DNA of 61,506 nt from Bacilli bacterium (GCA_045636225.1 JAZTXB010000029.1:1-61506), one strand, 5' to 3'. Shown: positions 10,641 to 28,071, counted from the stretch's first letter. Notes: generated by a model from the letters alone, not told the origin. Numbers and translations are program-made.

Positions 10641-10643
10641 ATT

Positions 10644-11477: not shown

Positions 11478-11493
11478 CTTAATTGATATTACT

Positions 11494-11556: not shown

Positions 11557-11588
11557 TAAAATATTATGGTAGAAATGAGGTGTATATT

Positions 11589-11828: not shown

Positions 11829-11860
11829 AGACTATTCAAATTGAATAGTCTTTTATATTT
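11827..11860. terminator. bidirectional rho-independent terminator
   Basis: AAAGACTATTCA-aat-TGAATAGTCTTT, 12-bp perfect stem, T-run after and A-run before. Confidence 0.8.
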
Positions 11861-13512
11861 TATCTTGTTTTTGGTTCATCACTATCGTCAAAAGGTGTTT
11901 TTATACTTTCTGTTGGTTGCCCCAACGTATCAAGTTTTTTTGCTATTTCTGTATAATATGTTTGAGCATTTACCATATTTATATAATTACCCTTTGTTGT
12001 ATCTGGTTCAAATTGTTTAAATATCATAGCACTTTGCAAAAATTCATGGACTTGTCTATGCCTTTCTGAACCTGCAAATCCAACAGTTTGCCTTGCATAC
12101 TTTCTAAATTGTGCCTCTATAAAAGAAACACGTTCAACATATTCTTCTGCTTTCTTATGAGCAGGAAGTTCAGATTCCATATATTTTTGTAATGCTATAT
12201 TAAATAATTGCTCTGTATGATATAAAAACATTTCTTCTTCAGATAATTCAGTTTCTTTTGGTTTTTCTTCTACTTTAACATCCATATCATCATAATACTT
12301 ACTAGATAAACAAACAGGTAAATTAGAATGTTCTAAATCCCCAAAATTAGATAATGAAGCCATCTTTGAAATAATATCATTTAATCCCTGAATATTTTCA
12401 TTACTTGTAATTTTAGAAAAATTACTTTGTAAATATTTCATAGTAGTCTTACTAGGCAATTCTATTGTTATAGTTCCATTGTTTTGTAATGGTGTTATTG
12501 AATGCTCTGTTATTTTACTCAATTTCATTACTTCTATTTTTTCATCTTCAGTTAAAGTTTGTAAAAACTCAGTATCATTTAAAATTAAATTAGCAACATA
12601 ACAATTTATTGCCTTTGAAGAAATTTTATTAAACCAATCGTTATAAGTAACATATTTAGTTCCACCATGACACACAGAATAATATCCACAATCTAAACCA
12701 GTAGGAATTGGACTTCCAAAAGTAGAAATCAACTCTGGTTTTTCCTGTTTTATTTCTTCTAAAATACTTAAAGTTTCGGTTAAATCATCTTCATAAACAT
12801 ATAGAATTGTTCTATCTAAATGCTTTTGTTCAATATCAGAATGTTCTTCACCTTTCATCTCAAAAGGGATTCCTTTTTCTATACATTTTTTTCTATACAA
12901 ATATAAAAATTCATATCTATTTTTACCATTAGGTGTATTTATATATATTCTGTGTTCTGTTACATCTCTATTATATTTTTCACCATTTTTATCAGTATCT
13001 TTACCATAAGGTAATTGATAAGTCTTACCAACTCTGTCACCTATTGCCTCTGATTCAGAAAGTATCTTATATGCAAATGAATTTTGTGGATAGACTTGCT
13101 TAAATAAAACACTTCCATTTGTTTCTCTAAATAATTCAAGAAGTCTGTCGTTTGAAATGTTTAAAAATTCCATTATTTCTAGTTCGCTAACACCACTATA
13201 ATATTGTGGCATTTCACTAATAAATTTAGCAATTCCTTTTTCATTAATTAAATCAACTATTTTTTTCTTTAATTCTATTCCTGTTAAACAAGAAAGTTTA
13301 ATTCTATCACTATCCAACATTTCTTCATCTATTGGTTTTTTTAAATCTGGCAATTTAATTTTTCTAGATGGATTATATTTTGTTATAAAAGAGTCATTAC
13401 ACATTTCTCTATAATATTTTAATAATTCAATTAATCCTTCTTCTTCCATTATTCTTATAGTGCCATTTTCTAATATTTGTCTTCTAACATTTTCGTTAGT
13501 CATATTTATCAC
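11860..13512 (-). CDS. hypothetical protein (550 aa), no family recognised
   Basis: Long uninterrupted ORF at the end of the cargo array. Central block RIYINTPNGKNRYEFLYLYRKKCIEKGIPFEMKG...DRTILYVYEDD is only vaguely reminiscent of HopA1-like effector-family proteins (unverified). Confidence 0.7.
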   Translation of the reverse strand: MINMTNENVRRQILENGTIRIMEEEGLIELLKYYREMCNDSFITKYNPSRKIKLPDLKKPIDEEMLDSDRIKLSCLTGIELKKKIVDLINEKGIAKFISEMPQYYSGVSELEIMEFLNISNDRLLELFRETNGSVLFKQVYPQNSFAYKILSESEAIGDRVGKTYQLPYGKDTDKNGEKYNRDVTEHRIYINTPNGKNRYEFLYLYRKKCIEKGIPFEMKGEEHSDIEQKHLDRTILYVYEDDLTETLSILEEIKQEKPELISTFGSPIPTGLDCGYYSVCHGGTKYVTYNDWFNKISSKAINCYVANLILNDTEFLQTLTEDEKIEVMKLSKITEHSITPLQNNGTITIELPSKTTMKYLQSNFSKITSNENIQGLNDIISKMASLSNFGDLEHSNLPVCLSSKYYDDMDVKVEEKPKETELSEEEMFLYHTEQLFNIALQKYMESELPAHKKAEEYVERVSFIEAQFRKYARQTVGFAGSERHRQVHEFLQSAMIFKQFEPDTTKGNYINMVNAQTYYTEIAKKLDTLGQPTESIKTPFDDSDEPKTR

Positions 13513-13565
13513 CTGTTACTCCATTACTTTTCTTTATACAAAATAATTTATATTAAATATTTATA

Positions 13566-14126
13566 TTATCTTGTAAATGAACCAGTACCATCTGTTAAAT
13601 CATTTTTATTAGGATCTACATTATCAAATTGTTGAGTCCCAGAAATCAAATTGTTTTTTAATTGAACTAATTGTTCATAATCTATTCTATTTTCTAATCT
13701 TCTATCAACAGTATCAATAACTACTCTTTTACCCTCTTTTTGTCTAATTATTTCACTCATAATTTTATCTAATTGTTCTTCAGAAACCATAATAGTTTTT
13801 ACAACTACTTCACCATTTCTAGTCATAACTCTACTAACAGTATTTGCTTTGTTTAAAGCTTCATCCCATTCTGCTTTACTGATAGAATCCATATCTGTTA
13901 TGAATTTTCCATCTGGTAGAACTCCTGTCATTTGTGCTTCTGCACCACTTGGTGTTCTATCGTAAAATCTTATACCTGGTTTATCTGGTGCAGTAAAAAC
14001 ATAAACTACATCAGCTAATTCTTTTTCCCTATCAATCTCTCTTCCAGTTGGTTCATTTTCTGGAACTATTTGTTTTTGACTCATCAATTGTCCATTTGCA
14101 ACTTCGTAATTAACTTCTCTCTCCAT
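13566..14126 (-). CDS. hypothetical protein (186 aa)
   Basis: ORF overlapping the HD gene by 17 nt; no recognisable motif. Confidence 0.65.
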   Translation of the reverse strand: MEREVNYEVANGQLMSQKQIVPENEPTGREIDREKELADVVYVFTAPDKPGIRFYDRTPSGAEAQMTGVLPDGKFITDMDSISKAEWDEALNKANTVSRVMTRNGEVVVKTIMVSEEQLDKIMSEIIRQKEGKRVVIDTVDRRLENRIDYEQLVQLKNNLISGTQQFDNVDPNKNDLTDGTGSFTR

Positions 14127-14538
14127 AATTTCCTCCTACTTTAGCAACAATAGCTTGTGAATTTAAATATTGTATTGAAGAACTACCATATCTATTTTCT
14201 ATATCAGCAAGTCTTTTTTCATATCCTACATCATTACCATATTTATCTATTTGCATATCTGCCATATTCAATATTTTTAAAAATAAAGACTCATATTCTG
14301 TATTTGGATTTCCATGATAATAAACTTCTTTCCAATATTCATATCCATTATCTTTTAACAAGTTTCCACCAATAATATTATGTTCTAATTTATCTTCTGA
14401 AAACTCATATCCTATATCATGATTATAACCTAAAATATATAATTTTTGCAAATCTGCTTCATTTAAGCTATATTCTTTCCCTATTTCTACCATTTTTCTT
14501 GCCACACCAATAGAATGTTTTAATCTATCAATATCCAT
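14110..14538 (-). CDS. small HD-domain phosphohydrolase
   Basis: H...HD metal-binding pattern (LKHSIGVA ... GYNHDIGY). Confidence 0.75.
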   Translation of the reverse strand: MDIDRLKHSIGVARKMVEIGKEYSLNEADLQKLYILGYNHDIGYEFSEDKLEHNIIGGNLLKDNGYEYWKEVYYHGNPNTEYESLFLKILNMADMQIDKYGNDVGYEKRLADIENRYGSSSIQYLNSQAIVAKVGGNYGERS

Positions 14539-14576
14539 GTTATACTTCTTTCTTTATATAAAATATAATCTATTTT

Positions 14577-15209
14577 TTATCTTTCCTTTTTATATCTCTC
14601 TAATGAAACATTTACACCCAATCTATTTAATCCTTGTTCTAATGCTTCAGCAGATTTGAAGTGTATAGTATTCATTCCTAATTGTTGAGCAGGAATTAAT
14701 AAATTATCTTTATCATCAATATAAACACACTCATCTGCATTATTTTCTGTTTTATCTAAAGCATATTGATACATCTTAATATCAGGTTTTCTTGTACCAA
14801 CTATATGTGAAAAAACACCATCTTTAAAATGTTCTAAAAAATCATATCTTTCTTTTAAATAATCTATTCTTTCTTGAACATTATCAGATAAGAACAATAA
14901 TTCATATCCTTGTTCTTCTAATTGCTTTACAATTTCTACTGTTCCTTCTATTGGAACATATCCACTTAACCATATTTCTGCTAAATCTTCATTTTTTGCA
15001 TCAATACCTAATGCACTTTTAGCTAAATTCCAAAATTCTTCATGAGATATTTCACTTTTTCTATATCTTGTTCCTATATCACCTTTAAATACATCAGCAA
15101 CAACTTCCTTATTTTTACCAAATCTTTCACTTATAATATCTATCGCTCTACTTGTTCCATCAGTAAAATATACTCCACCTAAATCAAAAATAACTGTTTT
15201 TATATTCAT
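14577..15209 (-). CDS. HAD-superfamily hydrolase (subfamily IA)
   Basis: Motif I VIFDLGGV, motif IV-like VYIDDKDNL. AGGAGG SD favours the ATG at 15209 (track start 15233). Confidence 0.85.
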   Translation of the reverse strand: MNIKTVIFDLGGVYFTDGTSRAIDIISERFGKNKEVVADVFKGDIGTRYRKSEISHEEFWNLAKSALGIDAKNEDLAEIWLSGYVPIEGTVEIVKQLEEQGYELLFLSDNVQERIDYLKERYDFLEHFKDGVFSHIVGTRKPDIKMYQYALDKTENNADECVYIDDKDNLLIPAQQLGMNTIHFKSAEALEQGLNRLGVNVSLERYKKER

Positions 15210-15223
15210 TTTAAATCCTCCTA

Positions 15224-15820
15224 TTAACACCATTTTTTAATAAATTCATCAATATTTTTTAAATCTGGCAATCTTTCTTTTAATTCTTCATGTGTCCAAT
15301 TCCACCATTCAGACTTTTCTATTTTTTCTATAATTTCATCACTAAAACGTTTCTTTATTGGTTTAGCAGGAACACCTACAACTACTGTATATGGTTCAAC
15401 ATCGTGTGTTACTACTGCACCACTTCCAACTACTGCTCCATTACCAATCTTTACTCCTGGCATAATTATTGCATTGTGTCCTATCCATACATCATTCCCA
15501 ATAACCACTTTATCTTTTCTTCGCCATTCAAATATACTTTCATCATCTTCATCTGCTAAATCAAATTGTTTAGAACGATAAGTAAAATGATGTTGTGCTA
15601 TTCTATCGTATGTAGGATGATTACTAGGATTAATTCTAGCACCCCAAGCAATAGATGCGAATTTTCCAATTTCTGCATACATAACTTGATTATAGCCATT
15701 GCAATAAGAATAATCACCGATTGTTGACTCTGTAATTATCGAATGATCACCTATTTCTGTATATTCTCCCAATATTGCTTTGTCTAATTTAACTTTTTCA
15801 CCTAATTTTGGATTTGTCAT
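15224..15820 (-). CDS. hexapeptide-repeat acyltransferase (XAT/CatB-Vat-like; resembles the phosphonate-cluster-associated subgroup)
   Basis: [16 protein letters not shown]...IGKFASIA...RINPSNHP...QHHFTYR...[15 protein letters not shown] and C-terminal WWNW; SD favours the ATG at 15820. Confidence 0.8.
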
Positions 15821-15839
15821 ATTCTTCACCCCCTATTAT

Positions 15840-16322
15840 TTATATAATACTACTTTTTCCAATACATCTAGTTAAGATATTTATTGCATTGTCATGCTTT
15901 TCTTTTCCATTTGTACAAGCACAATATTCTTTTAATACTTTAATATTATAATTTTTTTCAAACAGGTCTAATGCTGTTTTTAAAACACAACATTCAGTAT
16001 CAATTCCACAAATATGGATTTCTTCAATTCTATTTCTATTTATATATTCTATTAATTCATCATTAAGAGAAGAGTAAATCTTTTTTTCTATTACTAAATG
16101 CTTATAAGTGTTTATAGGTATATCTTGTCCCTCTTGGGTTAAACACCCTTTGTAATTTAATTTTTTATACCAATTACTTTCATAATTATTTATAAATTTA
16201 GTAAATATAATATTGTCATATTTTTTTGAATCAACAAGTTTTTTAATTTCATCAACAACATATCTACTATTATCATTTATAAAATCGTTTTGTAAGTCTA
16301 TAACTAATAATAATTTTTTCAA
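15840..16322 (-). CDS. isochorismatase-family cysteine hydrolase (nicotinamidase-like)
   Basis: LLVIDLQNDF start and catalytic-Cys block ICGIDTECCV. Confidence 0.8.
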   Translation of the reverse strand: MKKLLLVIDLQNDFINDNSRYVVDEIKKLVDSKKYDNIIFTKFINNYESNWYKKLNYKGCLTQEGQDIPINTYKHLVIEKKIYSSLNDELIEYINRNRIEEIHICGIDTECCVLKTALDLFEKNYNIKVLKEYCACTNGKEKHDNAINILTRCIGKSSII

Positions 16323-16345
16323 TTTAATATCCTCCCTATAACTTA

Positions 16346-16502
16346 CTATTTACTTAAATTAAATATTGAATATACCATTAAGCCAACACCAATGCCAAAT
16401 AATACACAACCATACCATTCAGTTAATTGATTAGAAAAGAATCCAATTATTCCTCCACCTAAAGCACATAATATTGCATATAATTATTTTTTATTTTTCA
16501 TA
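16346..16502 (-). pseudogene. decayed small membrane-protein gene
   Basis: GGAGG SD + ATG, in-frame TAA after 5 codons, then a TM-like reading (LYAILCALGGGIIGF) that needs a 1-nt frameshift to continue (SNQLTEWYGCVLFGIGVGLMVYSIF). Confidence 0.3.
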
Positions 16503-16538
16503 AATACCTCCACTATAAATTTTAATTTATTATTACAA

Positions 16539-16733
16539 TTAAATAACTCCAAAAACAATTAATAAAATGCCAATTATTATACAAATACTTCCCCATATTC
16601 TAATAACAATTTTCATTTTAGGATTTTTTAATAATTTTTCTGGTATTCTAGGGCTTTTAAGTTTCATAAAAAATTTTGGAAACAAAATCATTAAAATTGC
16701 AACTATTGTAATTAAAATTCCTACAACTAACAT
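16539..16733 (-). CDS. small two-TM membrane protein
   Basis: MLVVGILITIVAILMILFP...IWGSICIIIGILLIVFGVI. Confidence 0.5.
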   Translation of the reverse strand: MLVVGILITIVAILMILFPKFFMKLKSPRIPEKLLKNPKMKIVIRIWGSICIIIGILLIVFGVI

Positions 16734-16763
16734 ACGCTACCTCCTATATAAATTACTATTTGA

Positions 16764-17780
16764 TTAAATACTAACATCTATTCCTATGTTTTCTTTTTTA
16801 GCTTTTTCTATTAATTCCATAGATGTTGCTAAATCTTGTAAAAATAATCCGGTAGAATCAAATACAGTTATATCAGTATCTGACTTTCTACCTTTTTTCT
16901 TATTTAATATAACTTCCCCAATCTCACCATCTATTGAAGATATGATATTATTTTTGAAAGCAGTTTGCATTTCACCAGATTTAATGCATTGTTTTTCATC
17001 ATCTGCATATACTATCGCTCTTGAGAAAATCAAATCATCAATTTCTTGCTTTCCTTGCATACAAGCACCCATACAACTAAAGTGTGTTCCATCTTTAACC
17101 CATTCATTTTTTATCATTGCTTTTTCTGATGGTGTTGTAGTAATAATAATATCACTATTTCTTGTAGCCAATTCAATGTCTGTAATTCCCTCAAATTCTG
17201 CTTTTAATGAATAACCGGACTCTGCTAATAACTTAACAACTTTTTGATTTATTTCTTCTACTCTTTTTTCTAATGCAGTTGGATTATTGGGATTACATAT
17301 ATAAACTTTTTCTATATTAGGCATTGTAATCAATGTAGCCACTATTGAATATAATGCGATATTCCCACACCCTACAATTAGTAAATTCTTTGAATTTTCT
17401 CTAGCAAGGTATTTAGCACCAATTGCAGCTGCAGCTCCTGTTCTATATGAAGTTATTGGTGCAGCATTTAATAACGCAACAGGTTCTCCAGTAAGTGAAC
17501 TAAATACAAGTGATGTAGCATTTACTTTCGGTAAGTTTTTATTTACATTATTCTCATTATAAGAAATTAATTTTAATCCATAAGCATTACTATCAATTAA
17601 GTTACCTGATCTAATATCTAAATCAAAAACATTATGTTCATATTCATAGAAAACTAAAGGCCACACAGTAGCTTTATCGTTGTTTTTTTGTGAATAAGCA
17701 TTTTCAACTGCCTTTATGCTCATATACATTGTTATGATTTTTTTAATATCTTCTTCATTTAATATTTTTATTTGTGTCAT
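16764..17780 (-). CDS. ornithine cyclodeaminase/mu-crystallin family enzyme
   Basis: Size, Rossmann motif LLIVGCGNIA, family-typical SYRTGAAAAIG block. Confidence 0.85.
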   Translation of the reverse strand: MTQIKILNEEDIKKIITMYMSIKAVENAYSQKNNDKATVWPLVFYEYEHNVFDLDIRSGNLIDSNAYGLKLISYNENNVNKNLPKVNATSLVFSSLTGEPVALLNAAPITSYRTGAAAAIGAKYLARENSKNLLIVGCGNIALYSIVATLITMPNIEKVYICNPNNPTALEKRVEEINQKVVKLLAESGYSLKAEFEGITDIELATRNSDIIITTTPSEKAMIKNEWVKDGTHFSCMGACMQGKQEIDDLIFSRAIVYADDEKQCIKSGEMQTAFKNNIISSIDGEIGEVILNKKKGRKSDTDITVFDSTGLFLQDLATSMELIEKAKKENIGIDVSI

Positions 17781-17791
17781 TTTGCACTCCT

Positions 17792-18700
17792 TTATTCAAC
17801 TTGATTAGCAAATTTATAAATAGGTATTCCACCATTATCTAACCAGTCAACTTCAAATTCATCAAACTCTTTACATCTAAATTCATTTAGTTTTTCGTAA
17901 TCTTCCTTTTCCATTTTAAATTCTAAAGCTTCTAAATTTGATTTAACGTGTTCTAATTTATTTGCTTTAGTAATAGGAATTAATTTTTTCTCATTTATAT
18001 AATAATTTAATAAAATTTGATTTTGCGTTTTACCATATTTATTTGCTAATTCTACTAAAACTGGATAATTATGATTTGCAGTTCTATTTCTTCTAAAAGG
18101 TTGATAATTAACAAATAATATATCGTGAGAATGACAATAATCTATAATCCCCACATCTTCATTTTGTTTACATTCTAAATTATATAGTCCCTCAAAACTA
18201 AATAATTGAATATTTAATTCTTCAGTTATCATTTTCAATTCATCAATATTTAAGTTACTAGCACTAATATATCTGCTTTTACCTACACTCACTAATCTTT
18301 TTAGTTCATTATAACTTTCTGATAGTGGTATTTTACTCGCTCTAGGTGTATGTAATAAAATACTATCAGCATATTCTATACCTAATACATTTAAATATTT
18401 ATCTAATTGCTTTTCTATATCTGCGACTTCTTCAATATAATTTTCAATTTTCACAGTTATAAATAATTTATTTCTATCTACTCTTTTTAAAAATTCAGAA
18501 ATAAATCGCATAGTTTGTCCACCTGCATAAATATAACTTGTATCAATGTAATTCTGTCCCATATTATAAGAATACATCAAAGCATTCATTTCTTCTTCGT
18601 CTATAATTAATTCATCATTATTATCTGTCCAAGACTCACTTCTACTAGCACCTAATCCATAAGAACCAATAGCAAGTGGAAATATATTTTCTTTATTCAT
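17792..18700 (-). CDS. aldo/keto reductase
   Basis: YIDTSYIYAGGQ, LLHTP and SASNL blocks typical of the AKR fold. Confidence 0.85.
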   Translation of the reverse strand: MNKENIFPLAIGSYGLGASRSESWTDNNDELIIDEEEMNALMYSYNMGQNYIDTSYIYAGGQTMRFISEFLKRVDRNKLFITVKIENYIEEVADIEKQLDKYLNVLGIEYADSILLHTPRASKIPLSESYNELKRLVSVGKSRYISASNLNIDELKMITEELNIQLFSFEGLYNLECKQNEDVGIIDYCHSHDILFVNYQPFRRNRTANHNYPVLVELANKYGKTQNQILLNYYINEKKLIPITKANKLEHVKSNLEALEFKMEKEDYEKLNEFRCKEFDEFEVDWLDNGGIPIYKFANQVE

Positions 18701-18710
18701 TTTTTACCTC

Positions 18711-19373
18711 CTACTTGTTTTCAAAATAATATATTTTACCAAATTCATATATATTGGAATTTTCTATTATTAAAACACTTTCATCAGGTATTGCATATAT
18801 TTTTGTTTTATACTGACTACAAAAAGTTTTAATTTCCTTATTTCTGTCTTCATCAGTTTCTTTGTTATAATGAGGTTCAATACAAATATTTTCTCTATTT
18901 ATACCCAAATAACTACTTGGAATTTCAAAATCATCATCCGAAGTTATTATAGAATATTTAGATAAATTTATAGCACCTGCACAAAAACCAATAACTAAAT
19001 CTTGGTGTTCTCTAATTAATTCATTTAAGTCTAATTTATCAATAATTTCTTTTTGAGTAATTGGATTGCCACCCATTAAAAAGATTATGTATTTATCATT
19101 TTCTTTTAAGAATTTATTTACATCTTCTTTAGTTGTCTTTTCTTCTATATCAATAATATTTTTAAATATTATATCAATTTTCTTAAAACACTTAATTACA
19201 TTTAAAAGATAATTTTCTTCTCCTCCTAATCCTGGAGCTCCAATAAATAATAAACTATATGAATTATCAATATTTTTAACTAAATAATCTTCCATATATT
19301 CGTTAAAAGCAACATTATCTTCATTAGAACAAATATCGCCTTTTATATTTGAGAAAAATAAAGTTTTCTTCAT
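18711..19373 (-). CDS. peptidase S51 / type-1 glutamine-amidotransferase-like protein with Cys at the nucleophile position
   Basis: IFLMGGNP and VIGFCAGAI (S51 consensus is G-x-S-A-G). Confidence 0.55.
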   Translation of the reverse strand: MKKTLFFSNIKGDICSNEDNVAFNEYMEDYLVKNIDNSYSLLFIGAPGLGGEENYLLNVIKCFKKIDIIFKNIIDIEEKTTKEDVNKFLKENDKYIIFLMGGNPITQKEIIDKLDLNELIREHQDLVIGFCAGAINLSKYSIITSDDDFEIPSSYLGINRENICIEPHYNKETDEDRNKEIKTFCSQYKTKIYAIPDESVLIIENSNIYEFGKIYYFENK

Positions 19374-19376
19374 TGG

Positions 19377-20048
19377 CTATTTTCCTCCTTGTTCTTTTTT
19401 TAATTTTTTCCAATTATAAACACCATAACAGTCATTTATAAATAATAAGCACGGTGATATTAATACCGGAATAACGCTTAAATTACCTTGAATAACCGGT
19501 ACAACCCATAATGTCATAAGTATTAAATCATTCAATATAAAAAAGACAAATCCATTTTCACTTCTTCTAGCTGTACAATAAGTTGCTAAAACACTTGACA
19601 CTAAACTTAAAGAGCTTACTATTAAATTATTTGTATTAAATGCTTTTAATAAGAAATAATATCCAAACACTAATATACATTGTGAAAGAATTAAAATAGT
19701 TAATTCTTTTTTACTCATATCTTTAATTTTTACAGTATCTTTATTATATAAATTTTTAAGCCAATTAATAAAACCGTATATACATAATGGCAACGTCATT
19801 CCAAACGTTATTATTATTTCCCCATAATATCCATTTTTATATGAAATATACGCATAAAAGAATGTAGCAATAAATGTAATAATATAGTTTATTACTTTCC
19901 CCTTAGCAAGTAATATTGCCCCAGTAAAATATAACAATGTATATGTAAAATCTATCCAGGTTCCTTTAAATAAATATGTTGCAATACAGTTTGCTAAAAT
20001 TCCTAGAAATAGGAACCACTTTTCAAATCTTGTCCAGTCCTTAAACAT
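19377..20048 (-). CDS. pnuC: nicotinamide riboside transporter PnuC family
   Basis: ~220-aa polytopic membrane protein with a PnuC-like N-terminus (FKDWTRFEKWFL...) and WxxNxxxG-type blocks. Confidence 0.75.
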   Translation of the reverse strand: MFKDWTRFEKWFLFLGILANCIATYLFKGTWIDFTYTLLYFTGAILLAKGKVINYIITFIATFFYAYISYKNGYYGEIIITFGMTLPLCIYGFINWLKNLYNKDTVKIKDMSKKELTILILSQCILVFGYYFLLKAFNTNNLIVSSLSLVSSVLATYCTARRSENGFVFFILNDLILMTLWVVPVIQGNLSVIPVLISPCLLFINDCYGVYNWKKLKKEQGGK

Positions 20049-20074
20049 TTTTACTTCCTTTCATAAAATTCATT

Positions 20075-20479
20075 TTAAAATCTTTCAGTTATTAAAACTT
20101 CACCATCTTCATTATATATAGTTGATTCTGCATTAGCCATATATAACACTTGGAAGTCGGGATTATCTAATGTATAACCTGCTTCAATAGCCCAATCAAA
20201 CTCATTTATAACAGCTTGTTTTGCCTCCATATTATTACTATCATCTATTAATTCACAATTAATTCTTATCCAATTTGTATTATCATAAGCAACTATGCAC
20301 ACATTATTATTTTCTGCAATTTGCTTTGATACATTTTTTTGTTTATTTGTAATAACATATATTTTGTTGTCAAATAATATTGGATCACCAAATGGTCTAG
20401 AACTTGGTTTTCCATTATTAATAGTTGATACAAAGTTTACTTGTGTTTTTTCTTTTAAAAATTTATAAGTTTCGTTCAT
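20075..20479 (-). CDS. pyridoxamine-5'-phosphate-oxidase-like FMN-binding split-barrel protein
   Basis: FVSTINNGKPSSRPFGDPILFDNKIYVITNKQKNVSKQI pattern. Confidence 0.6.
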   Translation of the reverse strand: MNETYKFLKEKTQVNFVSTINNGKPSSRPFGDPILFDNKIYVITNKQKNVSKQIAENNNVCIVAYDNTNWIRINCELIDDSNNMEAKQAVINEFDWAIEAGYTLDNPDFQVLYMANAESTIYNEDGEVLITERF

Positions 20480-20501
20480 TTTAAATCCTCCTAAATTACA
20501 T

Positions 20502-21788
20502 TTATATTAACTTATTTAATAATTCATTTAACTCCGGTATTTTGTGTATGTTGTGGTATCCATCAAAATGATTATAATACTTTAAATACATACCAATAGA
20601 ATTAGTATCTTCTATAAATCTTGTGAACTTTTCTTTATTGTTATCATCTTCATCAGAATAAAGACAATATTTATCACATTCCATGTTTTTCACAAAATCT
20701 AATGCTTCTTTTTTTACACAAGCTTGTTTTTTTACTTCTACTATATAATCAGTTCTGTTAGTTGGATAATCATAGACTGCTCCTGGAGCTACTGCAACAT
20801 ATCCTTTTGGTTCAAATTTCTTTTCTTCGCAGTATCTAACAAAATATGCATTTCCAATAGAATGAGCAATTACAATACTATTGTTATTTAAAGTACCATT
20901 GTCATAATAAAAATCTAATATTTCTCTAAACTTTTCATATTTAGATTCTGCTCTAATTGGAAATTCCGGCATTATTACATCTATTTCTTTTTGTCCAAAT
21001 ACTTCTTTTACATCTACTCCCCACATTCTTAATGTGTCGCCATTTAATGAGTGTAAAATAAATATATTTGATAAATTTTGTTTCTTTGCTGTTTCCATTT
21101 CCAAAATATTTAGGAATTCATCATTCATAGCAGCTGCATGAAACCCATTAATACTCTTTATACTTGCTCCTGCCATTTTACAAATAAATAATCCAGGTTC
21201 ATAATCCCAAGCCTTATCACTTCTAAATACTGCTCCATGAATTCTACCACTTGCAACGAATGCCATTGATACACATACTCCTCCAAAATTTCTTCTATTA
21301 GATGAGTATTTTCTCATTCTTTGCATACAAGGTAAATTATTATTTCCATCAATAGCATATAAAGCATTCTTTATTGGAACTTCGTTAACATTTATCTTTT
21401 TATCATTTAAGTATGCACCTGTTTCATCTGCATAATAAAATTCATTTATTCTTGGTAAACTTATAACACTCGCTACTGTTTTTCCATCTTTAACACAAGC
21501 AACTTGAATTCCCCATAATGGTAAGTTGTTCGCAAAATTAATTGTTCCATCAATAGGATCAATTATAAAACAATTATCTGACATTTTATTATTAGTGTTG
21601 TATTCTTCACTAACAATATCAAAAGTTGGATATTCTTTTTTGATTTCATTAATCAAATAATTTTCTATTTCTAAATCTAAATTAGTTATTAAATCGTTTT
21701 CTGCACCTTTACTTTTTACTTCAAAAGCATTTTCAGAAATCTTATTAGCATTTAATACTATTCTTTTTAAAAACTCTATTTCTTTCAT
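20502..21788 (-). CDS. fusion protein: inositol-monophosphatase-family domain + YdeN/RBBP9-like alpha/beta hydrolase domain
   Basis: IMPase motifs IIDPIDGTINF and WDYEPG in the N-half; IAHSIGNAY nucleophile elbow in the C-half; SD favours the ATG at 21788. Confidence 0.7.
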   Translation of the reverse strand: MKEIEFLKRIVLNANKISENAFEVKSKGAENDLITNLDLEIENYLINEIKKEYPTFDIVSEEYNTNNKMSDNCFIIDPIDGTINFANNLPLWGIQVACVKDGKTVASVISLPRINEFYYADETGAYLNDKKINVNEVPIKNALYAIDGNNNLPCMQRMRKYSSNRRNFGGVCVSMAFVASGRIHGAVFRSDKAWDYEPGLFICKMAGASIKSINGFHAAAMNDEFLNILEMETAKKQNLSNIFILHSLNGDTLRMWGVDVKEVFGQKEIDVIMPEFPIRAESKYEKFREILDFYYDNGTLNNNSIVIAHSIGNAYFVRYCEEKKFEPKGYVAVAPGAVYDYPTNRTDYIVEVKKQACVKKEALDFVKNMECDKYCLYSDEDDNNKEKFTRFIEDTNSIGMYLKYYNHFDGYHNIHKIPELNELLNKLI

Positions 21789-21804
21789 AATTATTCCTCT
21801 CAAT

Positions 21805-22224
21805 TTATTTTGCCATATCTTCTTTTATCTTCATTAAAACATCATAATCAACATCTATTTTATTTAATTTTGTTCCTTTAGGATAATCTTCATCTATCCA
21901 TTTTTTATCATACATTTCTATTTCGTTTGCATATCTTGGAATCGCATGAAAATGAACAAACTCGTCTTTCATCATCATAGCACAATAATTCCATTTAATT
22001 GCTCCGTATAATTCCTTTGTTTTTTCTTCGAACCATTTACACACTTCTGAAAATTCTGCCATTTCTTCACTTGAAACATCTTTTAAAAATGGTTTTCCAC
22101 TTTTCAAAATTATTATGCAACTTCCTAAAGTAACAACATTTTCTCTTAAAATTATTACCCAATGTTTAAATTCTTTTAATAATAGTTCTGGTTTATTAAA
22201 TCTTCCTGCAAATTCTAAATTCAT
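21805..22224 (-). CDS. HIT-family nucleotide hydrolase/transferase
   Basis: Histidine-triad-like VHFHAIPRY. Confidence 0.6.
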   Translation of the reverse strand: MNLEFAGRFNKPELLLKEFKHWVIILRENVVTLGSCIIILKSGKPFLKDVSSEEMAEFSEVCKWFEEKTKELYGAIKWNYCAMMMKDEFVHFHAIPRYANEIEMYDKKWIDEDYPKGTKLNKIDVDYDVLMKIKEDMAK

Positions 22225-22247
22225 ATAGAATTCCTCCTATTCATAAT

Positions 22248-22982
22248 TTATTTTTTTCTTACAAGACAAGTCCATGTAATTTTCTTATTAGCTTCCTTTT
22301 TATCTACTTGTAATTGAACTGTTTTTATTCTTTCATCTTGTATTTCGCCTTCTTGCATAAAAATAAATTCCCATTTATCTTCATCAAAAAATCTTTTCAA
22401 TGTATTCTCGTCAAAAAATCTTTTTGTTGTTCCTCTAACTTCATAATAATTAGTTTCAAGCATTATTCCTTGCCCTGCACCAAAATTACTATCATTTGTA
22501 GAGTTTACTACAAAGGCAAATGTTCCATTTTGTTTAATTATTCTATATAATTCACTTATTAATTGCTTTGTCTCTTTTTCTGAAAAATAATGTATTGATT
22601 TGTTTGCTAAAACAAATTCAAACATTCCATCCCCAAATGGCAATTTTTCTTTCATATTAAACTGCAAAGTCTTAGCTTCAGGAATATTTTCTTTTATTTT
22701 AATTAAAGCTGTATTAGAAAAGTCACAAGCTATTACTTTATGTCCCAACTCCACCAAATGTAGAGTATCGATTCCAACTCCACATCCTAAGTCTAATATA
22801 GGGGTTTTAGTTTCACTTATAATAGTTGATAATCGTTCATCGCATTCTAACCAACCATCATATTGATTTCTAATATCTTCTCTATTTCCTGCTCTTAAAT
22901 GAATTGTATCCCATCTTTTTTCTTTTTCTTCTTCACTTATAGATAATCTTTCTTTATCATCACTAAATCTATCATCATTCAT
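22248..22982 (-). CDS. class I SAM-dependent methyltransferase
   Basis: Motif I ILDLGCGVGID, acidic motif II ACDFS. Confidence 0.8.
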   Translation of the reverse strand: MNDDRFSDDKERLSISEEEKEKRWDTIHLRAGNREDIRNQYDGWLECDERLSTIISETKTPILDLGCGVGIDTLHLVELGHKVIACDFSNTALIKIKENIPEAKTLQFNMKEKLPFGDGMFEFVLANKSIHYFSEKETKQLISELYRIIKQNGTFAFVVNSTNDSNFGAGQGIMLETNYYEVRGTTKRFFDENTLKRFFDEDKWEFIFMQEGEIQDERIKTVQLQVDKKEANKKITWTCLVRKK

Positions 22983-23004
22983 ATTAATAAATCCTCTTTA
23001 ATTT

Positions 23005-23535
23005 TTAATCTTCTAATTTAGCAGGTACTGGTTCTAATGTATTATCTGCAATAAGTTTTATTGCTTCATCTATTTCTTCTGTTATCCAATCAGTAAAACT
23101 GTTCCATATATCATCAAATTCGCCAGTTTCTACATTTAATAAATATACTTTTTTATCATTTTCTTCAGTATTAATACAAATTATATCGCCATAACTTCTA
23201 AATCCAATTATGCAATACTTATCGTCTAAATCATAACTTCTTTTATCTTTGTTATAATCTTCATAGCTATCAAATTCTAAATCTTTTTCTTTATCTATTG
23301 CTTGTTTTGATAACATAACAGTGTCAAATAATAACCCACCATCACAATATTTTAGCCATTTTTCAAATTCTTCGTTTTTTATATTATATTGTGTAGTAAT
23401 CTCTTTTTTTGTATTATCGTTTCCTACTAATAAATAATGATATTCTTCAAATTCTTGCAAATTATCAATACAATCTAACATCATTTGATTGTTCTTAAAT
23501 TCTTCTCTCATTTTTTCATAATCTAATTTCATCAT
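23005..23535 (-). CDS. SMI1/KNR4 (SUKH-1) family protein
   Basis: Size and pattern (FEKWLKYCDGGLLFD ... IIGFRSYGDIICI) typical of SUKH immunity-type proteins; GGAGGG SD favours the ATG at 23535. Confidence 0.55.
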   Translation of the reverse strand: MMKLDYEKMREEFKNNQMMLDCIDNLQEFEEYHYLLVGNDNTKKEITTQYNIKNEEFEKWLKYCDGGLLFDTVMLSKQAIDKEKDLEFDSYEDYNKDKRSYDLDDKYCIIGFRSYGDIICINTEENDKKVYLLNVETGEFDDIWNSFTDWITEEIDEAIKLIADNTLEPVPAKLED

Positions 23536-23549
23536 AAATATTCCCTCCA

Positions 23550-24104
23550 TTATAAATGACAAACTATATCTTCAAATGTATCAAAACCACTCTCAGCATT
23601 TATATGTCCTGCACCTTTTAAAACTATTTGTTCTGTTGCTATCGTATCAGCAAATTCTTTTTCTTTTTCATATTTAACATAAGGATCATTATCAGAATAA
23701 AAACAAATAATTTCACTAGCACATTCTTTAACATCACTTAAATTATCAAAATACATACTTTCATTAACATTGTCGTATTCTTCATTGATACCTAAATAAT
23801 TATTAAAACCACATACAAAAATAAGTTTTTTAACCTTAACCTTATTTTCTACCAAAAACTTTGATATAAATACTGGTGCAATACTATGTCCTATAATTGT
23901 TGTATTTTCGTTTATTAGTCCTAAATCCAAATAAACTTTTAATAATTTACTCCAATTATTATAGTTTTGATAACCTACACCTATGGGAAAATCTGGTACA
24001 TAAACTTGTTTATCATTAGATGATATAAAATCTTGCAACCAACTAAACCAATTTGAGTATGGATTACTAAATGAACCATGTATTATAAAATAGTTATCTT
24101 TCAT
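23550..24104 (-). CDS. YdeN/RBBP9-like alpha/beta serine hydrolase
   Basis: FIIHGSFSNPYSNWF and IGHSIAPVF nucleophile elbow; GGAGGG SD favours the ATG at 24104. Confidence 0.7.
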   Translation of the reverse strand: MKDNYFIIHGSFSNPYSNWFSWLQDFISSNDKQVYVPDFPIGVGYQNYNNWSKLLKVYLDLGLINENTTIIGHSIAPVFISKFLVENKVKVKKLIFVCGFNNYLGINEEYDNVNESMYFDNLSDVKECASEIICFYSDNDPYVKYEKEKEFADTIATEQIVLKGAGHINAESGFDTFEDIVCHL

Positions 24105-24114
24105 AAATTCCCTC

Positions 24115-24501
24115 CTATTTAATTTTTTGTTTTCTAACAAATTTATTCAACAATATATTCACATATAATTTATTTATAATAAATATAAAATATATTGTAT
24201 ATAGGACAACCGACATTGTACTAAAACTGTCATTTAATTTATCACCTTTATCAACTATCATAAATGCGAAAGAAAGCAAAAAATCTGTTAGTCCATAAGG
24301 TATAAATAATATTCCTATTACAACAGATATTATTAATAATATCCTCATAATTTTCACAATTCTAGTTTTATTTATTTCATCTTTTTGTTTTTTATATAAT
24401 TCTTTACAATTATATTTTTTTATTAAAATACAATTATAAATTTTAATAAGAATAAATAAAAATAATGTAATGTAAAACAATACTGCAAAAATAGTTGACA
24501 T
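24115..24501 (-). CDS. polytopic membrane protein, unknown
   Basis: Three to four hydrophobic helices; first gene of the tight array. Confidence 0.55.
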   Translation of the reverse strand: MSTIFAVLFYITLFLFILIKIYNCILIKKYNCKELYKKQKDEINKTRIVKIMRILLIISVVIGILFIPYGLTDFLLSFAFMIVDKGDKLNDSFSTMSVVLYTIYFIFIINKLYVNILLNKFVRKQKIK

Positions 24502-24692
24502 TATACACTCTCCTTTAAAAGATTTTTCCTATTTTGATAGTTCTAGTTTCTTAATAAATTAATCATATTTCCCAAGTATTATTATAACATATAAATTTAT
24601 AATTATCTTCATTCTGCTTAAAATTTACCATATTTTTTTATATTTTTTTATAAAAATATAATGGATTAATTAGGGAATAATAAAATTATCCC

Positions 24693-25310
24693 CTAATTTC
24701 CAAGTTTTTTTGTTCTTCTTTTAACTTCTTCTCTTTTGTAAGTAGATTCAAAAGCACCTTTTTCTAAAGTGTTATAATCGTTTTCTTCAGCATTATATGT
24801 AACTATATAACCACCTTTTAAGCAAACAGCTTTAGATCCCCAAGCAGTTTCAATAATAACATTCTCATCTACTTGAGATAGCAATCTCCATTCTGGTACT
24901 GGATAATATTCGTTTGGTGTTTCTGCTATATCATAAGTATTTAAAAATTTATCAAATCTTACAACATATTCTTCGTTGGAAGTACTTAAAATATTTGTAA
25001 CAACAACATCAGTCTTTTTAGCAACACCACCAGTTAATAATTCACAATCTCTTTCTTTTACTGTTGCTTCTTCTTCAGCAAGTATATACTCTTTTCCATC
25101 AATAGTAGTTTTTAAAACTGTTTTAATTAATTCTCCTTTTTGCCCTAATCTTACTCTTACTTTTGCATGTTTACTTGCATAAAATTTTCTTTCTTCTGGA
25201 ATTGTATCTAAATATGCACCTATTTCATTGTTTTGTATAACTCTACATTCAATTTCTAAGTCTGGATACAATTCTGGATTTGTACTTTTTAAAATAATTT
25301 TTTCTTTCAT
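24693..25310 (-). CDS. hypothetical protein (205 aa)
   Basis: Clean ORF behind a strong promoter and structured leader; no family recognised. Confidence 0.7.
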   Translation of the reverse strand: MKEKIILKSTNPELYPDLEIECRVIQNNEIGAYLDTIPEERKFYASKHAKVRVRLGQKGELIKTVLKTTIDGKEYILAEEEATVKERDCELLTGGVAKKTDVVVTNILSTSNEEYVVRFDKFLNTYDIAETPNEYYPVPEWRLLSQVDENVIIETAWGSKAVCLKGGYIVTYNAEENDYNTLEKGAFESTYKREEVKRRTKKLGN

Positions 25311-25374
25311 AATCTCACTCTCTTTCTATCTTTTGTCTTTTTTATTACTCCTTTCCTTTTAAAATTATTGAAAG

Positions 25375-25405
25375 AAAAAACTTCCACACAAAGTGCAGAA
25401 GTCTT
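25375..25405 (-). terminator. second leader terminator (T2)
   Basis: Minus strand ACTTCTGCAC-ttt-GTGTGGAAGT followed by TTTTTT. Confidence 0.55.
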
Positions 25406-25412
25406 AAAAGAC

Positions 25413-25449
25413 AAAAAAACAAGACTCATACACAATGTGTAAAAGTCTT
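25413..25449 (-). terminator. first leader terminator (T1)
   Basis: Minus strand AAGACTTTTACACA-ttg-TGTATGAGTCTT followed by G+TTTTTTT. Confidence 0.7.
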
Positions 25450-25545
25450 GTTCGATAGTTTTATTATCTTTTAACCCGGATATTAAATATCAAGATGACG
25501 AGTTAAAATCATTCACAGAATGAGAACTACTCCCTTTCAACGGGA
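25450..25545 (-). ncRNA. structured 5' leader (candidate riboswitch aptamer or sRNA body)
   Basis: Consecutive hairpins on the minus strand: CCC-gttgaaa-GGG; GAGT..TCATTC-tgt-GAATGA..ACTC; ATCTT[GATAT-tta-ATATC]cgggttaaAAGAT. Possible CCCG/CGGG tertiary pairing. Confidence 0.35.
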
Positions 25546-25548
25546 TAT

Positions 25549-25577
25549 AATATACCATATTTTTACATTTTTGTCAA
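25549..25577 (-). promoter_or_regulatory. near-consensus sigma-A promoter with extended -10
   Basis: Minus strand TTGACA - 17 nt - (TGG)TATATT. Confidence 0.7.
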
Positions 25578-25589
25578 ATTTGAGGTTTT

Positions 25590-26369
25590 CTACTTACCTC
25601 TTGAACTTGTAAAAGATACTTGTTCAGATAATTTTTCTTTTAATGAAGCTAAATATGCTTCTTGATTAACATAAGCAGAATTTATTTGCCCAATAAATTC
25701 GCCAAGATATACTGATAGTTGTTTGCTACCAAACCCACTAGATAAATCTTTAAAGTCTAATACTTCTCCTACTGGTTCTTTTATTTCAGCATCAGGCATA
25801 ACATTTTTTTCTTTTGCTTTTTCTGCAATAAGACTAGCTCTATTCTCTGTTTCTTTTTGTATATCAGTATAAGGTGAACCACCCCATTCTCCTCTACACA
25901 TTAAATCTAATGTTTCTTTTGAATAAAAACTAGTTGTAGCAACGAATTGTTTTTTTGATGGAACAATATCTTGTAATTCATATCTTTGAACAAACACACC
26001 TTCTGGCGTAAATATTGATATTGATGTTTCTGGTCTTATCGAAACTATTCCCCCGTTATAATTTGTTTTAGTTCCTGGTAGATTAAAATATATTTGACTT
26101 TTATAATCTCCAGAATTAAAAATAGCATCATGGTCTGTAACCCAAAGCATTGCATTTTCGCTTGGAACTACCACAGCTTGTTCTGTAAGACTTTTTTGCA
26201 TAGGTCTAACTATTTGAGAAAGTTGAATGTCTTTAATAAATGTTCCCAAATACGAAGCCATATCTCCATAACGTCTTACGCTTGAGTAATAACTCTCTTT
26301 TTCCTTTGGATATTGTTTATAAGTATCAACAATATGTTTGGCAAATCTAGCATTGTAATCTTCAGTCAT
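25590..26369 (-). CDS. hypothetical protein (259 aa)
   Basis: AGGAGG SD favours the ATG at 26369 (MTEDYNARF...). Own extended -10 promoter just upstream. No TM segment, no family recognised. Confidence 0.65.
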   Translation of the reverse strand: MTEDYNARFAKHIVDTYKQYPKEKESYYSSVRRYGDMASYLGTFIKDIQLSQIVRPMQKSLTEQAVVVPSENAMLWVTDHDAIFNSGDYKSQIYFNLPGTKTNYNGGIVSIRPETSISIFTPEGVFVQRYELQDIVPSKKQFVATTSFYSKETLDLMCRGEWGGSPYTDIQKETENRASLIAEKAKEKNVMPDAEIKEPVGEVLDFKDLSSGFGSKQLSVYLGEFIGQINSAYVNQEAYLASLKEKLSEQVSFTSSRGK

Positions 26370-26388
26370 TCTATTACCTCCTACCATA

Positions 26389-26397
26389 ATTATACCA
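26389..26397 (-). promoter_or_regulatory. extended -10 promoter
   Basis: Minus strand TGGTATAAT directly upstream of the SD of 25590..26369. Confidence 0.45.
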
Positions 26398-26478
26398 TGA
26401 AAACAATTAAATCAATCCATAAATATGTGTTTTGCACCTAAATTTCGTCATTTTTCGACATTTTTTATTATTTATATG

Positions 26479-26510
26479 TAAAAAAGGTCATTTCAAACAG
26501 AAATAACCTT
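26479..26510 (-). terminator. terminator after the T4SS operon
   Basis: Minus strand AAGGTTATTTC-tgttt-GAAATGACCTT followed by TTTTT. Confidence 0.6.
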
Positions 26511-26516
26511 ATAAAT

Positions 26517-28061: not shown

Positions 28062-28071
28062 CTCCTAGATT

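Follow-up and report, generated by a model that had tools for sequence, protein, structure and literature searches.

Integrative and conjugative elements (ICEs) of gut bacteria carry a median of 40 cargo genes each, and the survey that gives this figure, in its available text, reports serine-integrase ICEs from Firmicutes alone (PMC6907783). Elements of Faecalibacterium are described, in the portion of that report at hand, as having very diverse cargo and as exchanging modules (PMC12084326). We analyzed a 61,506-bp stretch of DNA from a Bacilli bacterium (JAZTXB010000029.1 of GCA_045636225.1), here called the window, which is the complete contig C29 of a 1.49-Mb assembly with 169 contigs and 26% GC. 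An original prediction, made from the sequence alone, had singled out a row of mostly unrelated small-molecule enzyme genes between positions 24501 and 14577 as the cargo of an ICE, and had considered whether the row might be a detoxification or repair toolbox, a set of nucleotide- or cofactor-modifying functions or an unrecognized pathway. We find that this array is cargo in a variable slot of a serine-recombinase ICE, and with moderate confidence we regard it as a mosaic of stand-alone accessory genes, probably read as one transcript, and not as one pathway. Below, G000 is the window's own genome, other G numbers are relatives' genomes, L numbers are loci (several of them metagenomic) and C stands for a contig. 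The names unk205, unk186 and unk547 denote unknown proteins of 205, 186 and 547 amino acids (aa), and memb128 a 128-aa membrane protein.

Conjugation genes lie on one side of the array and regulator and recombinase genes on the other. The minus strand from 26517 to 41735 encodes, by Pfam matches, CHAP, VirB4, PrgI, pilin-like, T4CP, ArdC-like, DUF3801, relaxase, MobC and Toprim proteins. The ICE machinery includes matches to PF03432 (139 bits), PF02534 (210 bits), TraG P-loop/AAA_10 and PrgI. Further genes at high coordinates encode a 2528-aa SNF2 protein, a sortase, a TED/SpaA adhesin and ParB/ParA. The opposite end, from 4131 to 11828, has Pfam matches to two large serine recombinases (4131–7399), DUF6870, MazF, sigma-like, helix-turn-helix (HTH) and receiver-domain proteins. 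The Tn1549/CTn-type conjugative transposons of Clostridia and enterococci have a similar module of CHAP, VirB4, PrgI, T4CP, relaxase, DUF3801, sortase and adhesin genes, with cargo lying between the transfer and integration modules. Tn1549 uses a tyrosine integrase, whereas this element has two serine recombinases.

The contents of the slot differ among related elements. VirB4 relatives (E ≤ 1e-100) were present in 17 of 398 other genomes of the class. No array homologue was found downstream of VirB4 relatives in seven regions, three of which were long enough to read. The first readable slot holds an ABC-ATPase pair and HTH genes, the second TnpV/TetR, ABC genes, a two-component system and BlaI-BlaR, and the third DNA methylases, HNH, SNF2 and AAA_13 genes. 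Clustering at ≥ 90% identity placed VirB4 in a cluster of 1668 members, against 1–16 members for the array proteins from memb128 to the last gene, a HAD phosphatase. A small sub-lineage of a widespread backbone thus carries the array as its cargo. The original description of the array as ICE cargo is therefore upheld, both by its flanks and by the three related ICEs with unrelated slot genes.

The array consists of 15 intact minus-strand open reading frames (ORFs) from 24501 down to 14577 plus one small gene with a premature stop. GGAGG-like sites precede the chosen starts, which replace several nominal ones (24140 moves to 24104, for example, 23562 to 23535, 21803 to 21788, 15829 to 15820 and 15233 to 15209). 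The nominal overlaps vanish at these starts, which are backed by Shine-Dalgarno (SD) sites, and the intergenic gaps are then, in order, 10, 14, 22, 23, 16, 22, 26, 3, 10, 11, 30, 216, 19 and 14 nucleotides (nt). The gene row, the loss of the overlaps at SD-supported starts and the presence of a decayed gene in the one larger gap had all been proposed beforehand, and our re-reading agrees on each: internal gaps are 3–30 nt except for the 216-nt gap, which encloses a 51-codon ORF with an in-frame TAA. The family names proposed for the products also hold. Pfam curated cut-offs were reached by 12 of the 15 intact ORFs; two small membrane proteins are without a family, and the HIT protein falls below its cut-off and is backed by a fold search.

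The first gene (24115–24501, minus strand, like all genes of the array) has a AAAGGAGAG site and encodes memb128, which has no Pfam family above cut-off and forms a 90% cluster of one member. It is followed by a YdeN-like serine hydrolase (23550–24104; PF06821, 66.9 bits against a cut-off of 22), a SUKH/SMI1-KNR4 protein (23005–23535; 34.3 bits against 25.4) and a class I S-adenosylmethionine (SAM) methyltransferase (22248–22982; Pfam Methyltransf_11/25, about 64 bits). The SUKH protein belongs to a non-enzyme, immunity-type family and occurs with identical sequence on 23 contigs, and the methyltransferase has generic matches only in NCBIfam and PADLOC. The next product (21805–22224) scored 17.0 bits in Pfam, under the HIT cut-off of 21.5, and a sequence search of the Protein Data Bank (PDB) returned no matches for it or for the HD protein described below. 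It has 71 homologues, and a structure model built from 33 homologues (pLDDT 91.6) gave 44 PDB matches at E ≤ 0.001. Those listed are nearly all HIT-family proteins, with Ap4A phosphorylase and Fhit at the top (TM 0.6–0.7). Within the stretch VHFHAIPRY, H91 is invariant, H93 is shared by the window protein and the consensus, and the first position of the triad pattern is Phe. The modelled fold confirms assignment to the HIT superfamily, with a predicted Fhit/Ap4A-phosphorylase-like character.

The gene at 20502–21788 encodes a fusion of an inositol monophosphatase (IMPase; PF00459, 119 bits) with a YdeN-like alpha/beta hydrolase. Its hydrolase domain, the C-terminal half, is a homologue of the array's separate YdeN-like protein (25% identity, E 2e-10) and retains the nucleophile elbow. 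We found matches to the fusion in 18 species-level genomes, 17 of them near full length (59–81% identity) and one, L038, limited to the IMPase half (49%). The hosts of the fusion are MAGs (metagenome-assembled genomes) labelled Bacilli, Clostridia, Erysipelotrichales and others, in which its neighbors vary and a second YdeN-like gene is frequently close (L022–L039).

Downstream of the fusion lie genes for a PNPOx-like FMN-binding-fold protein (20075–20479; PF01243, 30.6 bits against 28.1), a divergent Pnu-family (PnuC-like) transporter (19377–20048; TIGR01528, 77.3 bits against 42.45), a peptidase S51-like protein (18711–19373; PF03575, 60.9 bits against 23.9), an aldo/keto reductase (17792–18700; PF00248, 114.6 bits) and an imine-reductase type member of the ornithine cyclodeaminase (OCD)/mu-crystallin family (16764–17780; PF02423, 193 bits). 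Every NCBIfam equivalog fell below cut-off for the OCD gene, and the OCD protein, the reductase and the IMPase domain match family-level models only. PDB sequence searches with the IMPase, reductase and isochorismatase-type proteins likewise gave generic matches only.

A 64-aa membrane protein (16539–16733) has a TAGGAGG site, and its cluster members lie on 56 and 30 contigs, a spread unlike that of the neighboring genes. The decayed 51-codon membrane-protein gene (16346–16501) has its TAA at codon 6. We rejected a frameshift, since the lesion is a nonsense codon in frame. An intact paralogue lies on G000:C89 at about 22525–22687, and copies of the gene in G010, G025, G343 and G000:C89 share 84–88% nucleotide identity, which is above the conservation of the surrounding genes. 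The three remaining products are a short, 160-aa isochorismatase-family cysteine hydrolase (15840–16322; PF00857, 87.3 bits), a hexapeptide-repeat acyltransferase of the xenobiotic-acetyltransferase class (15224–15820; TIGR03308, 259.8 bits against 201.65) and an HAD-IA phosphatase (14577–15209; PF13419 and PF00702, about 50 bits). The catalytic Cys region of the cysteine hydrolase aligns to PDB isochorismatases, and its PDB matches cover mainly residues 78–155. A nicotinamidase (PncA) identity was rejected at 34.5 bits against the 174 bits of the equivalog.

The co-directional run does not stop at 14577. It continues through an HD-domain gene (14110–14538; PF01966, 34.7 bits), unk186 (13566–14126) and unk547 (11860–13503), the last gene of the run, all on the minus strand, with a 38-nt gap before the HD gene, a 17-nt overlap between HD and unk186 and a 62-nt gap before unk547. 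Between the end of the run and a convergent HTH gene, and shared by the two, is a strong 12-bp hairpin at 11827–11853 (−13 kcal/mol, z −5.2). At the other border, the 191-nt spacer upstream of the first array gene contains a 14-bp hairpin (24668–24698) that ends the upstream gene, unk205, and a promoter-like extended −10, TGnTATAAT, on the minus strand at 24581–24589, which is a consensus match only and lies about 80 nt 5′ of the first array gene. A terminator scan of the minus strand from 24501 to 11860 showed nothing credible, its sole site being a 5-bp stem at 17672–17660. The layout is thus of operon type, with co-directional genes, gaps of 3–38 nt, one 17-nt overlap, one 62-nt gap and no credible internal terminator. 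Taken with the border hairpins and the extended −10, this predicts a transcription unit from about 24.58 to 11.83 kb that would comprise 19 genes, all but one of them intact. One long transcript, from a promoter near 24585 to the hairpin at 11853–11827, is most likely.

Of the extent originally given to the array, the start at 24501 stands, whereas the end at 14577 does not mark the end of the run, which extends three genes further to 11860. The absence of an internal terminator had been foreseen, as had that of a regulator and of a scaffold enzyme: Pfam and NCBIfam profile searches of the array proteins found no regulator domain, and no polyketide synthase (PKS), non-ribosomal peptide synthetase (NRPS), terpene, ribosomally synthesized peptide (RiPP) or sugar-pathway core. 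Comparison of the junctions between array genes gave AT-rich chance repeats only, and an Rfam search over 10000–27000 at E ≤ 1 gave matches at chance level only.

We assessed how unusual such a tidy row is in this genome. On contig C29 the minus strand holds 56 of the 58 ORFs of ≥ 100 aa. Genome-wide, 84% of 1011 adjacent ORF pairs lie on the same strand with a median same-strand gap of 40 nt, and 9 of 255 same-strand runs contain 15 or more genes. The tidiness of the array is therefore a property of the genome and not special to it, and in a strand-biased, compact genome operon-like tidiness is weak evidence for a pathway.

More informative is the recurrence of the genes. At ≥ 90% identity, the array proteins from the YdeN-like hydrolase through the HAD phosphatase, apart from the 64-aa membrane protein, occur on 11–24 contigs, as do the CHAP protein, the T4CP, one recombinase and a receiver-domain protein, or about 15–24 contigs overall. 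The longest contigs shared by array and backbone proteins measure 57558, 61230 and 55360; lengths of 15961 and 8092 recur for some of the array proteins, and 47485 is a further length among the contigs with near-identical proteins. One NCBI MAG has accessions in the order recombinase +0, OCD +16, S51 +18, PnuC +19 and PNPOx +20, a spacing that equals the gene count of the window if the small gene at 16501–16346 is annotated in that MAG. The flanking host gene rbgA forms a 90% cluster of 1, which, beside the recurrence of backbone and cargo, is an indirect sign of excision and transfer. Twenty sequencing runs from 14 animal gut or faeces studies, including bovine and goat, hold part of 14600–24590, and at least half of the sampled words of this interval are present in 6 of the 20. 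A metatranscriptome run holds a 0.12 share of these words, a value that speaks neither for nor against expression.

Beyond these near-identical copies the arrangement dissolves. A blastn search of 11860–25310 (about 13.4 kb) against 60 relatives returned single-gene pieces only, the longest being 920 nt at 81% in the reductase of G016. A DNA search of 399 scored genomes of the class gave eight genomes, including the window's own, with matches at E ≤ 1e-40, none longer than 421 nt except the self-match. The array was found whole in none of these 60 and 399 genomes. Anchoring on the IMPase fusion with 10-kb flanks, we observed the window order at 0 of 18 loci, several of which are cut by contig ends; 9 of the 18 have no other array family in the fetched flanks, and only L033 has more than three. 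Anchoring on the reductase gave the window order at 0 of 10 metagenome loci. At four loci with 77–82% identity, the reductase adjoins rbgA (L043), recombinase fragments (L044), a Pnu gene (L045) or nothing recognizable (L046). Homologues of the PNPOx-like protein (75–80%) in G013 and L039 have other neighbors. Among the 60 relatives, three array proteins occur in one genome each: IMPase in G012 (29%, IMPase part only), reductase in G016 (80%) and OCD in G060 (41%).

An unrecognized pathway held together by selection is therefore not supported. The original prediction had named scattered, independent occurrence in relatives as the outcome that would tell against it, and beyond the near-identical copies this is largely what we found. 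Of the synteny comparison that it had called for, near-identical copies of the ICE with its array do recur at ≥ 90% identity and loose sub-blocks exist, whereas no deeper gene order is kept.

The genes that bracket the array have a history of their own. The 90% clusters of HD and unk186 have 38 members each, on up to 149 and 242 contigs, some of about 320 kb, and the two have consecutive accessions in a Bacilli MAG, so that unk186 is partnered with the HD gene elsewhere too. For the adjoining HAD, hexapeptide and isochorismatase genes the clusters hold just 1–4 members. A break in distribution thus falls exactly at 14577, the end coordinate first given for the array. On the other side, unk205 (24693–25310, minus strand) lies directly upstream of the array. 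It is chromosomal in G012, G015, G022 and G023, where the preceding genes are U32 peptidase/CinA or gatCAB-asnS and the following ones a mixture of small enzymes (SDR, CutA1, ComB-like phosphatase, methyltransferases, APH); a second copy in the host, on G000:C67, has 67% aa identity. Homologues of unk186 (36–38%) adjoin unk205 in G012 and G015. Homologues of unk547 (33–36%) lie between HD and isochorismatase genes in G168 and downstream of unk205 in G022; a 524-aa protein downstream of unk205 in G023 was compared as a possible relative of unk547 and rejected. No Pfam or NCBIfam family matches unk547, and its 18 homologues are all unnamed. Atlas leads give no function for these proteins: HopA1 for unk547 scored 0.87, below the 0.9 level, and the PGDYG-like lead for unk205 scored 0.96. 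Seven variants of unk547 of 371–374 aa share only about a quarter of the protein, at 79–96% identity, which suggests that domains have been swapped where the cargo ends distally. Since the bracketing unknowns are linked to each other elsewhere without the enzymes, the enzyme genes seem to have accreted in between.

The same observations could mean instead that the block came from the chromosome of a related bacterium, as a flexible stretch with unk205 and unk547 at its limits, and that it was captured passively and rides unselected on the ICE. Bookend genes and the structured leader upstream of unk205 are indeed chromosomal in relatives, one gene already carries a nonsense codon, and composition is indistinguishable from that of the host lineage: the array has a GC content of 0.260 against 0.258 and a tetranucleotide correlation (r) of 0.989 against 0.991 ± 0.007 for random 12.6-kb chunks. 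By these same two measures we rejected an island of foreign composition. A passive slice is nonetheless improbable in our judgment, as the block is retained at ≥ 90% identity on about 15–24 contigs and in runs from 14 studies, 18 of its 19 genes are intact, and few genomes of the genus possess the interior genes, so that no known chromosome supplies the whole block.

On the mosaic reading, the ICE would integrate by its large serine recombinases adjacent to host rbgA, and the array would fill its variable slot. In 23 of 26 genus genomes the host gene order (rbgA, mini-RNase III, SpoU methylase) is present up to 4047–4086, where it breaks off beside the recombinases. Small genes, each with its own distribution, would have piled up head to tail between two bookend sets, the riboswitch-like leader with unk205 on one side and HD–unk186–unk547 on the other, which appear as chromosomal and mutually linked genes in related bacteria. 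The genes so packed encode phosphatases, hydrolases, transferases, reductases, a divergent Pnu importer, an orphan SUKH protein and small membrane proteins. The products most likely work independently of one another, in salvage, house-cleaning or small-molecule modification, and a genome-reduced host would gain activities that it otherwise lacks.

Several observations weigh against this picture. One comes from L033, a goat-gut MAG locus that holds seven array families within 8 kb, next to nrdDG and def. The identities to the window are 27% for the methyltransferase, 53% for the isochorismatase-type hydrolase, 73% for HD, 73% for the IMPase fusion, 44% for Pnu, 69% for OCD and 81% for the reductase. 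The order is methyltransferase, isochorismatase, HD, IMPase fusion, an unknown, YgjV, two Pnu genes (29% and 44%), OCD, reductase, an unknown and a serine recombinase, so that the families amount to two sub-blocks of the window in another order. In three of the five close homologues with enough upstream sequence (G016, L045 and L033, not L044 or L046), the reductase is directly preceded by a Pnu gene. YdeN-like hydrolases are found repeatedly next to the IMPase fusion (L028, L030 and L036) and beside Pnu genes (G003 and G023, where the hydrolase homologues have 53–66% identity), and HD is close to an isochorismatase gene in L033 and G168. Some array families may thus be linked beyond chance; the recurrences are given as raw counts. 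The case for the element as a unit has weak points as well. That array and backbone share foreign contigs is deduced from their matching longest-contig sizes and from accession spacing. The right flank (58225–61506, where the contig ends) matches 4 of 26 genus genomes, never beside rbgA, and the continuation of this flank in the relatives maps to other contigs. The assembly is a MAG that scored 93.8% complete with 5.4% contamination, so the host assignment of the contig rests on binning and composition.

These linkages make room for a different view, in which part of the array is a single uptake-and-processing route: the Pnu protein would import a vitamin- or nucleoside-like compound that its neighbors, namely the IMPase-hydrolase fusion, the PNPOx-like and S51 proteins, the reductase and the OCD-type imine reductase, perhaps with the cysteine hydrolase and HD, convert or trap. 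The seven families in two sub-blocks common to the window and L033 favor such a route, as do the Pnu pairings with reductase and YdeN-like genes. A canonical PnuC-NadR is already present on C112, so the divergent ICE Pnu may carry another substrate, and Pnu transporters are described, in the available part of the source, as importing a range of B-type vitamins through facilitated diffusion coupled to metabolic trapping (PMC5749112). We nevertheless consider the route unlikely. Within the fetched flanks the reductase and OCD are missing at 17 of the 18 IMPase-fusion loci and Pnu at 16, and the order differs even in L033, whose range of identities (27–81%) fits independent histories. Moreover, the array has no kinase or other trapping enzyme, and its Pfam and NCBIfam matches include no scaffold or committed-step enzyme.

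Slightly less likely still is the broader proposal that a loosely conserved mobile neighborhood, made up of the IMPase-YdeN fusion, the Pnu importer, the aldo/keto reductase, the OCD-type imine reductase, the cysteine hydrolase and the HD phosphohydrolase, represents an unrecognized import and processing route for one vitamin- or nucleoside-like compound. If it were true, serine-recombinase elements would share a missing cofactor or nucleotide economy among genome-reduced gut bacteria, possibly tied to metal status via read-through from the Mn-riboswitch-like leader. Four loci (L033, L044, L032 and L063) touch recombinases or a DUF6870 remnant beside rbgA, and these contacts fit a shared mobile gene pool as well as they fit a pathway.

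We compared the array with the rest of the host repertoire. At E ≤ 1e-8 the only host paralogues of array genes are a PnuC at 31%, besides the 67% copy of unk205. The canonical host PnuC (C112, 186–725; 158.8 bits) adjoins a NadR-type (AAA_28) kinase domain (1213–1707), and PncB adjoins NadE on G000:C160:606-2962. Salvage of nicotinamide riboside and nicotinate therefore does not depend on the ICE, and with these pairs elsewhere in the genome we rejected the array as a module for NAD salvage. The ICE Pnu protein is 31% identical to the canonical PnuC (103.8 bits), and Pfam and NCBIfam searches of the array found no NadR-type or other kinase, so that a role in NAD metabolism is not the obvious one for it.

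NAD chemistry also underlies the suggestion that the array serves the ICE itself as anti-defense or establishment functions, for example by refilling NAD+ or nucleotide pools in recipients. The Pnu importer, the nicotinamidase-family fold, HIT, HD and the phosphatases do touch nucleotide or NAD chemistry. Yet enzymes that rebuild NAD+ (Nampt, Nmnat or similar) are not in the array, the cysteine hydrolase fails the nicotinamidase model, the host owns PncB-NadE and PnuC-NadR, and homologues of the array genes are chromosomal in relatives. PADLOC found nothing specific; it matched 1 of 21 proteins, through a generic methyltransferase domain only, and a defense island was rejected on that result. 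We regard an anti-defense role as very improbable.

The acyltransferase and the methyltransferase raise the further question of resistance. A detoxification or resistance island would acetylate, methylate, reduce and hydrolyse gut xenobiotics, plant toxins and antibiotics, with the orphan SUKH protein giving immunity to contact-dependent toxins. The acyltransferase is related to CatB (E 4.6e-36) and Vat (E 4.2e-33), the methyltransferase has TehB-like matches, and the reductase, the PNPOx-like protein, the alpha/beta hydrolases and the cysteine hydrolase come from families that often act on foreign compounds. Resistance and stress functions are common cargo of gut ICEs, as far as the available texts describe them (PMC6907783, PMC12084326). 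However, no curated resistance model is reached: the acyltransferase scored 124.1 against 350 for CatB and 114.6 against 300 for Vat, and its best match is TIGR03308. The array has no efflux pump or regulator, and IMPase, HAD, HD, HIT and Pnu point to nucleotide or cofactor chemistry instead. Such an island therefore seems to us a doubtful interpretation, on a par with passive capture. The looser idea of a detoxification or repair toolbox, raised in the original prediction, is compatible with the gene families observed.

Upstream of unk205 lies a structured, yybP-ykoY-like leader with a terminator (25405–25548, minus strand; 144 nt). Copies are found at L015:9844-9983, L016:4557-4698, L017:5167-5309, L018:5284-5425 and L019:1248-1392, and in three further genera of the family at L074:1510-1648, L075:1512-1650 and L076:1463-1605. 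Mean column identity over six loci is 77%, against 57–67% aa identity for the unk205 protein. The leader has a near-consensus promoter, an invariant GGGAGUAG on its 5′ side and AGA before the 3′ strand of the closing helix. Four helices lie within this closing helix, P1, and the 3′ strand of P1 overlaps the intrinsic terminator, which gives an ON-switch layout. With a hand-drawn structure and nine related sequences, 91.5% of 246 cells are paired, against 25–49% with the partner slid, and 11 of 28 pairs change on both sides, a level reached by 0 of 500 shuffles. The genes that follow the leader are unk205 at seven loci, NfeD-SPFH (L074) and an unknown membrane protein (L076), and include no known Mn exporters; in the three further genera it precedes unk205 once and the others twice.

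The best cis-regulatory Rfam match of the leader is yybP-ykoY (RF00080), at 21.4 bits for the window and 17.4 bits for L017, against a gathering score of 45. That score is reached at none of the eight leader loci, and a whole-genome search at E ≤ 1 gave no match. Published descriptions of yybP-ykoY, in the text available, include a conserved 5′ L1 and an invariable AGA (PMC6649816) and a four-way junction (10.1101/553354), and those that fit the leader extend to the ON switch (PMC6649816, 10.1101/553354, PMC9190785). The leader resembles them in its four-helix layout, conserved 5′ stretch, AGA and ON-switch geometry; it is unlike yybP-ykoY in lying under the Rfam threshold and in preceding a PGDYG-like soluble protein, NfeD-SPFH or a membrane protein. 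We regard it as a probable divergent member of the yybP-ykoY (Mn2+) riboswitch family placed before atypical genes.

Other parts of the element and its insertion site deserve brief mention. The 5′ side of rbgA (window 4047–4130) is an apparent recurrent landing site. A serine-recombinase-like stretch lies beside rbgA in G014 (L041, G014:C2), a DUF6870 remnant and an HD gene lie beside it in G287 (L063, G287:C2), and on the metagenome contig L043 the reductase (82%) adjoins it directly. A MazF/PemK-type toxin gene at 7957–8710 is overlapped by a small upstream ORF, and the two are probably an addiction module. Between relaxase and MobC is a GNAT acetyltransferase gene (38691–39227) with a 37% homologue in a mixed enzyme array at L028. 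The stretch 42406–55654 encodes the 2528-aa SNF2/helicase protein, the sortase and a 1292-aa thioester-domain/SpaA-repeat surface protein.

If the mosaic reading is right, the locus is a clear and ordinary example of conjugative elements moving single-gene metabolic accessories among small-genome gut bacteria. As almost no array gene has another copy in the host, the element would widen the host's small-molecule chemistry in one step. Three features merit study alone: the IMPase-YdeN fusion, the pairing of a divergent Pnu gene with a reductase or hydrolase, and the Mn-riboswitch-like leader before non-transporter genes.

Finally, we compared the array with known arrangements of this kind. It is like an integron cassette array in being a tidy, co-directional series of unrelated small genes, mostly promoterless, behind one promoter. 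Integron-like cassettes were rejected, because the gaps of 3–38 nt are too short for attC, the array junctions showed no repeats beyond chance, and the window has no integron integrase or tyrosine integrase. The array is also like the chromosomal flexible regions of related bacteria (G003, G016, G022, G023 and L033), which contain short-gap, co-directional runs of GNAT, methyltransferase, HAD, NUDIX, SDR, hydrolase, Pnu and HD genes and share some genes with it at 53–81% identity. The run in G003, for example, reads AraC/GyrI, nitroreductase, HAD, GNAT, MBL, NUDIX, alpha/beta hydrolase, Pnu, YdeN-like, GNAT and two SDRs. Unlike the array, these regions are chromosomal or next to a lone recombinase, and their gene set and order differ each time. 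With the serine-recombinase ICEs of gut Firmicutes, as the available text of the surveys presents them, the element shares a relaxase, T4CP, VirB4, recombinases at one end and a variable slot of many genes. It differs from the ICEs surveyed there in that its host is uncultured, with a genome of about 1.5 Mb and 26% GC. Its cargo also departs from what those texts give as usual for gut ICEs, namely resistance genes, transporters with a catabolic operon, or defense genes, and is instead a run of single-gene functions.

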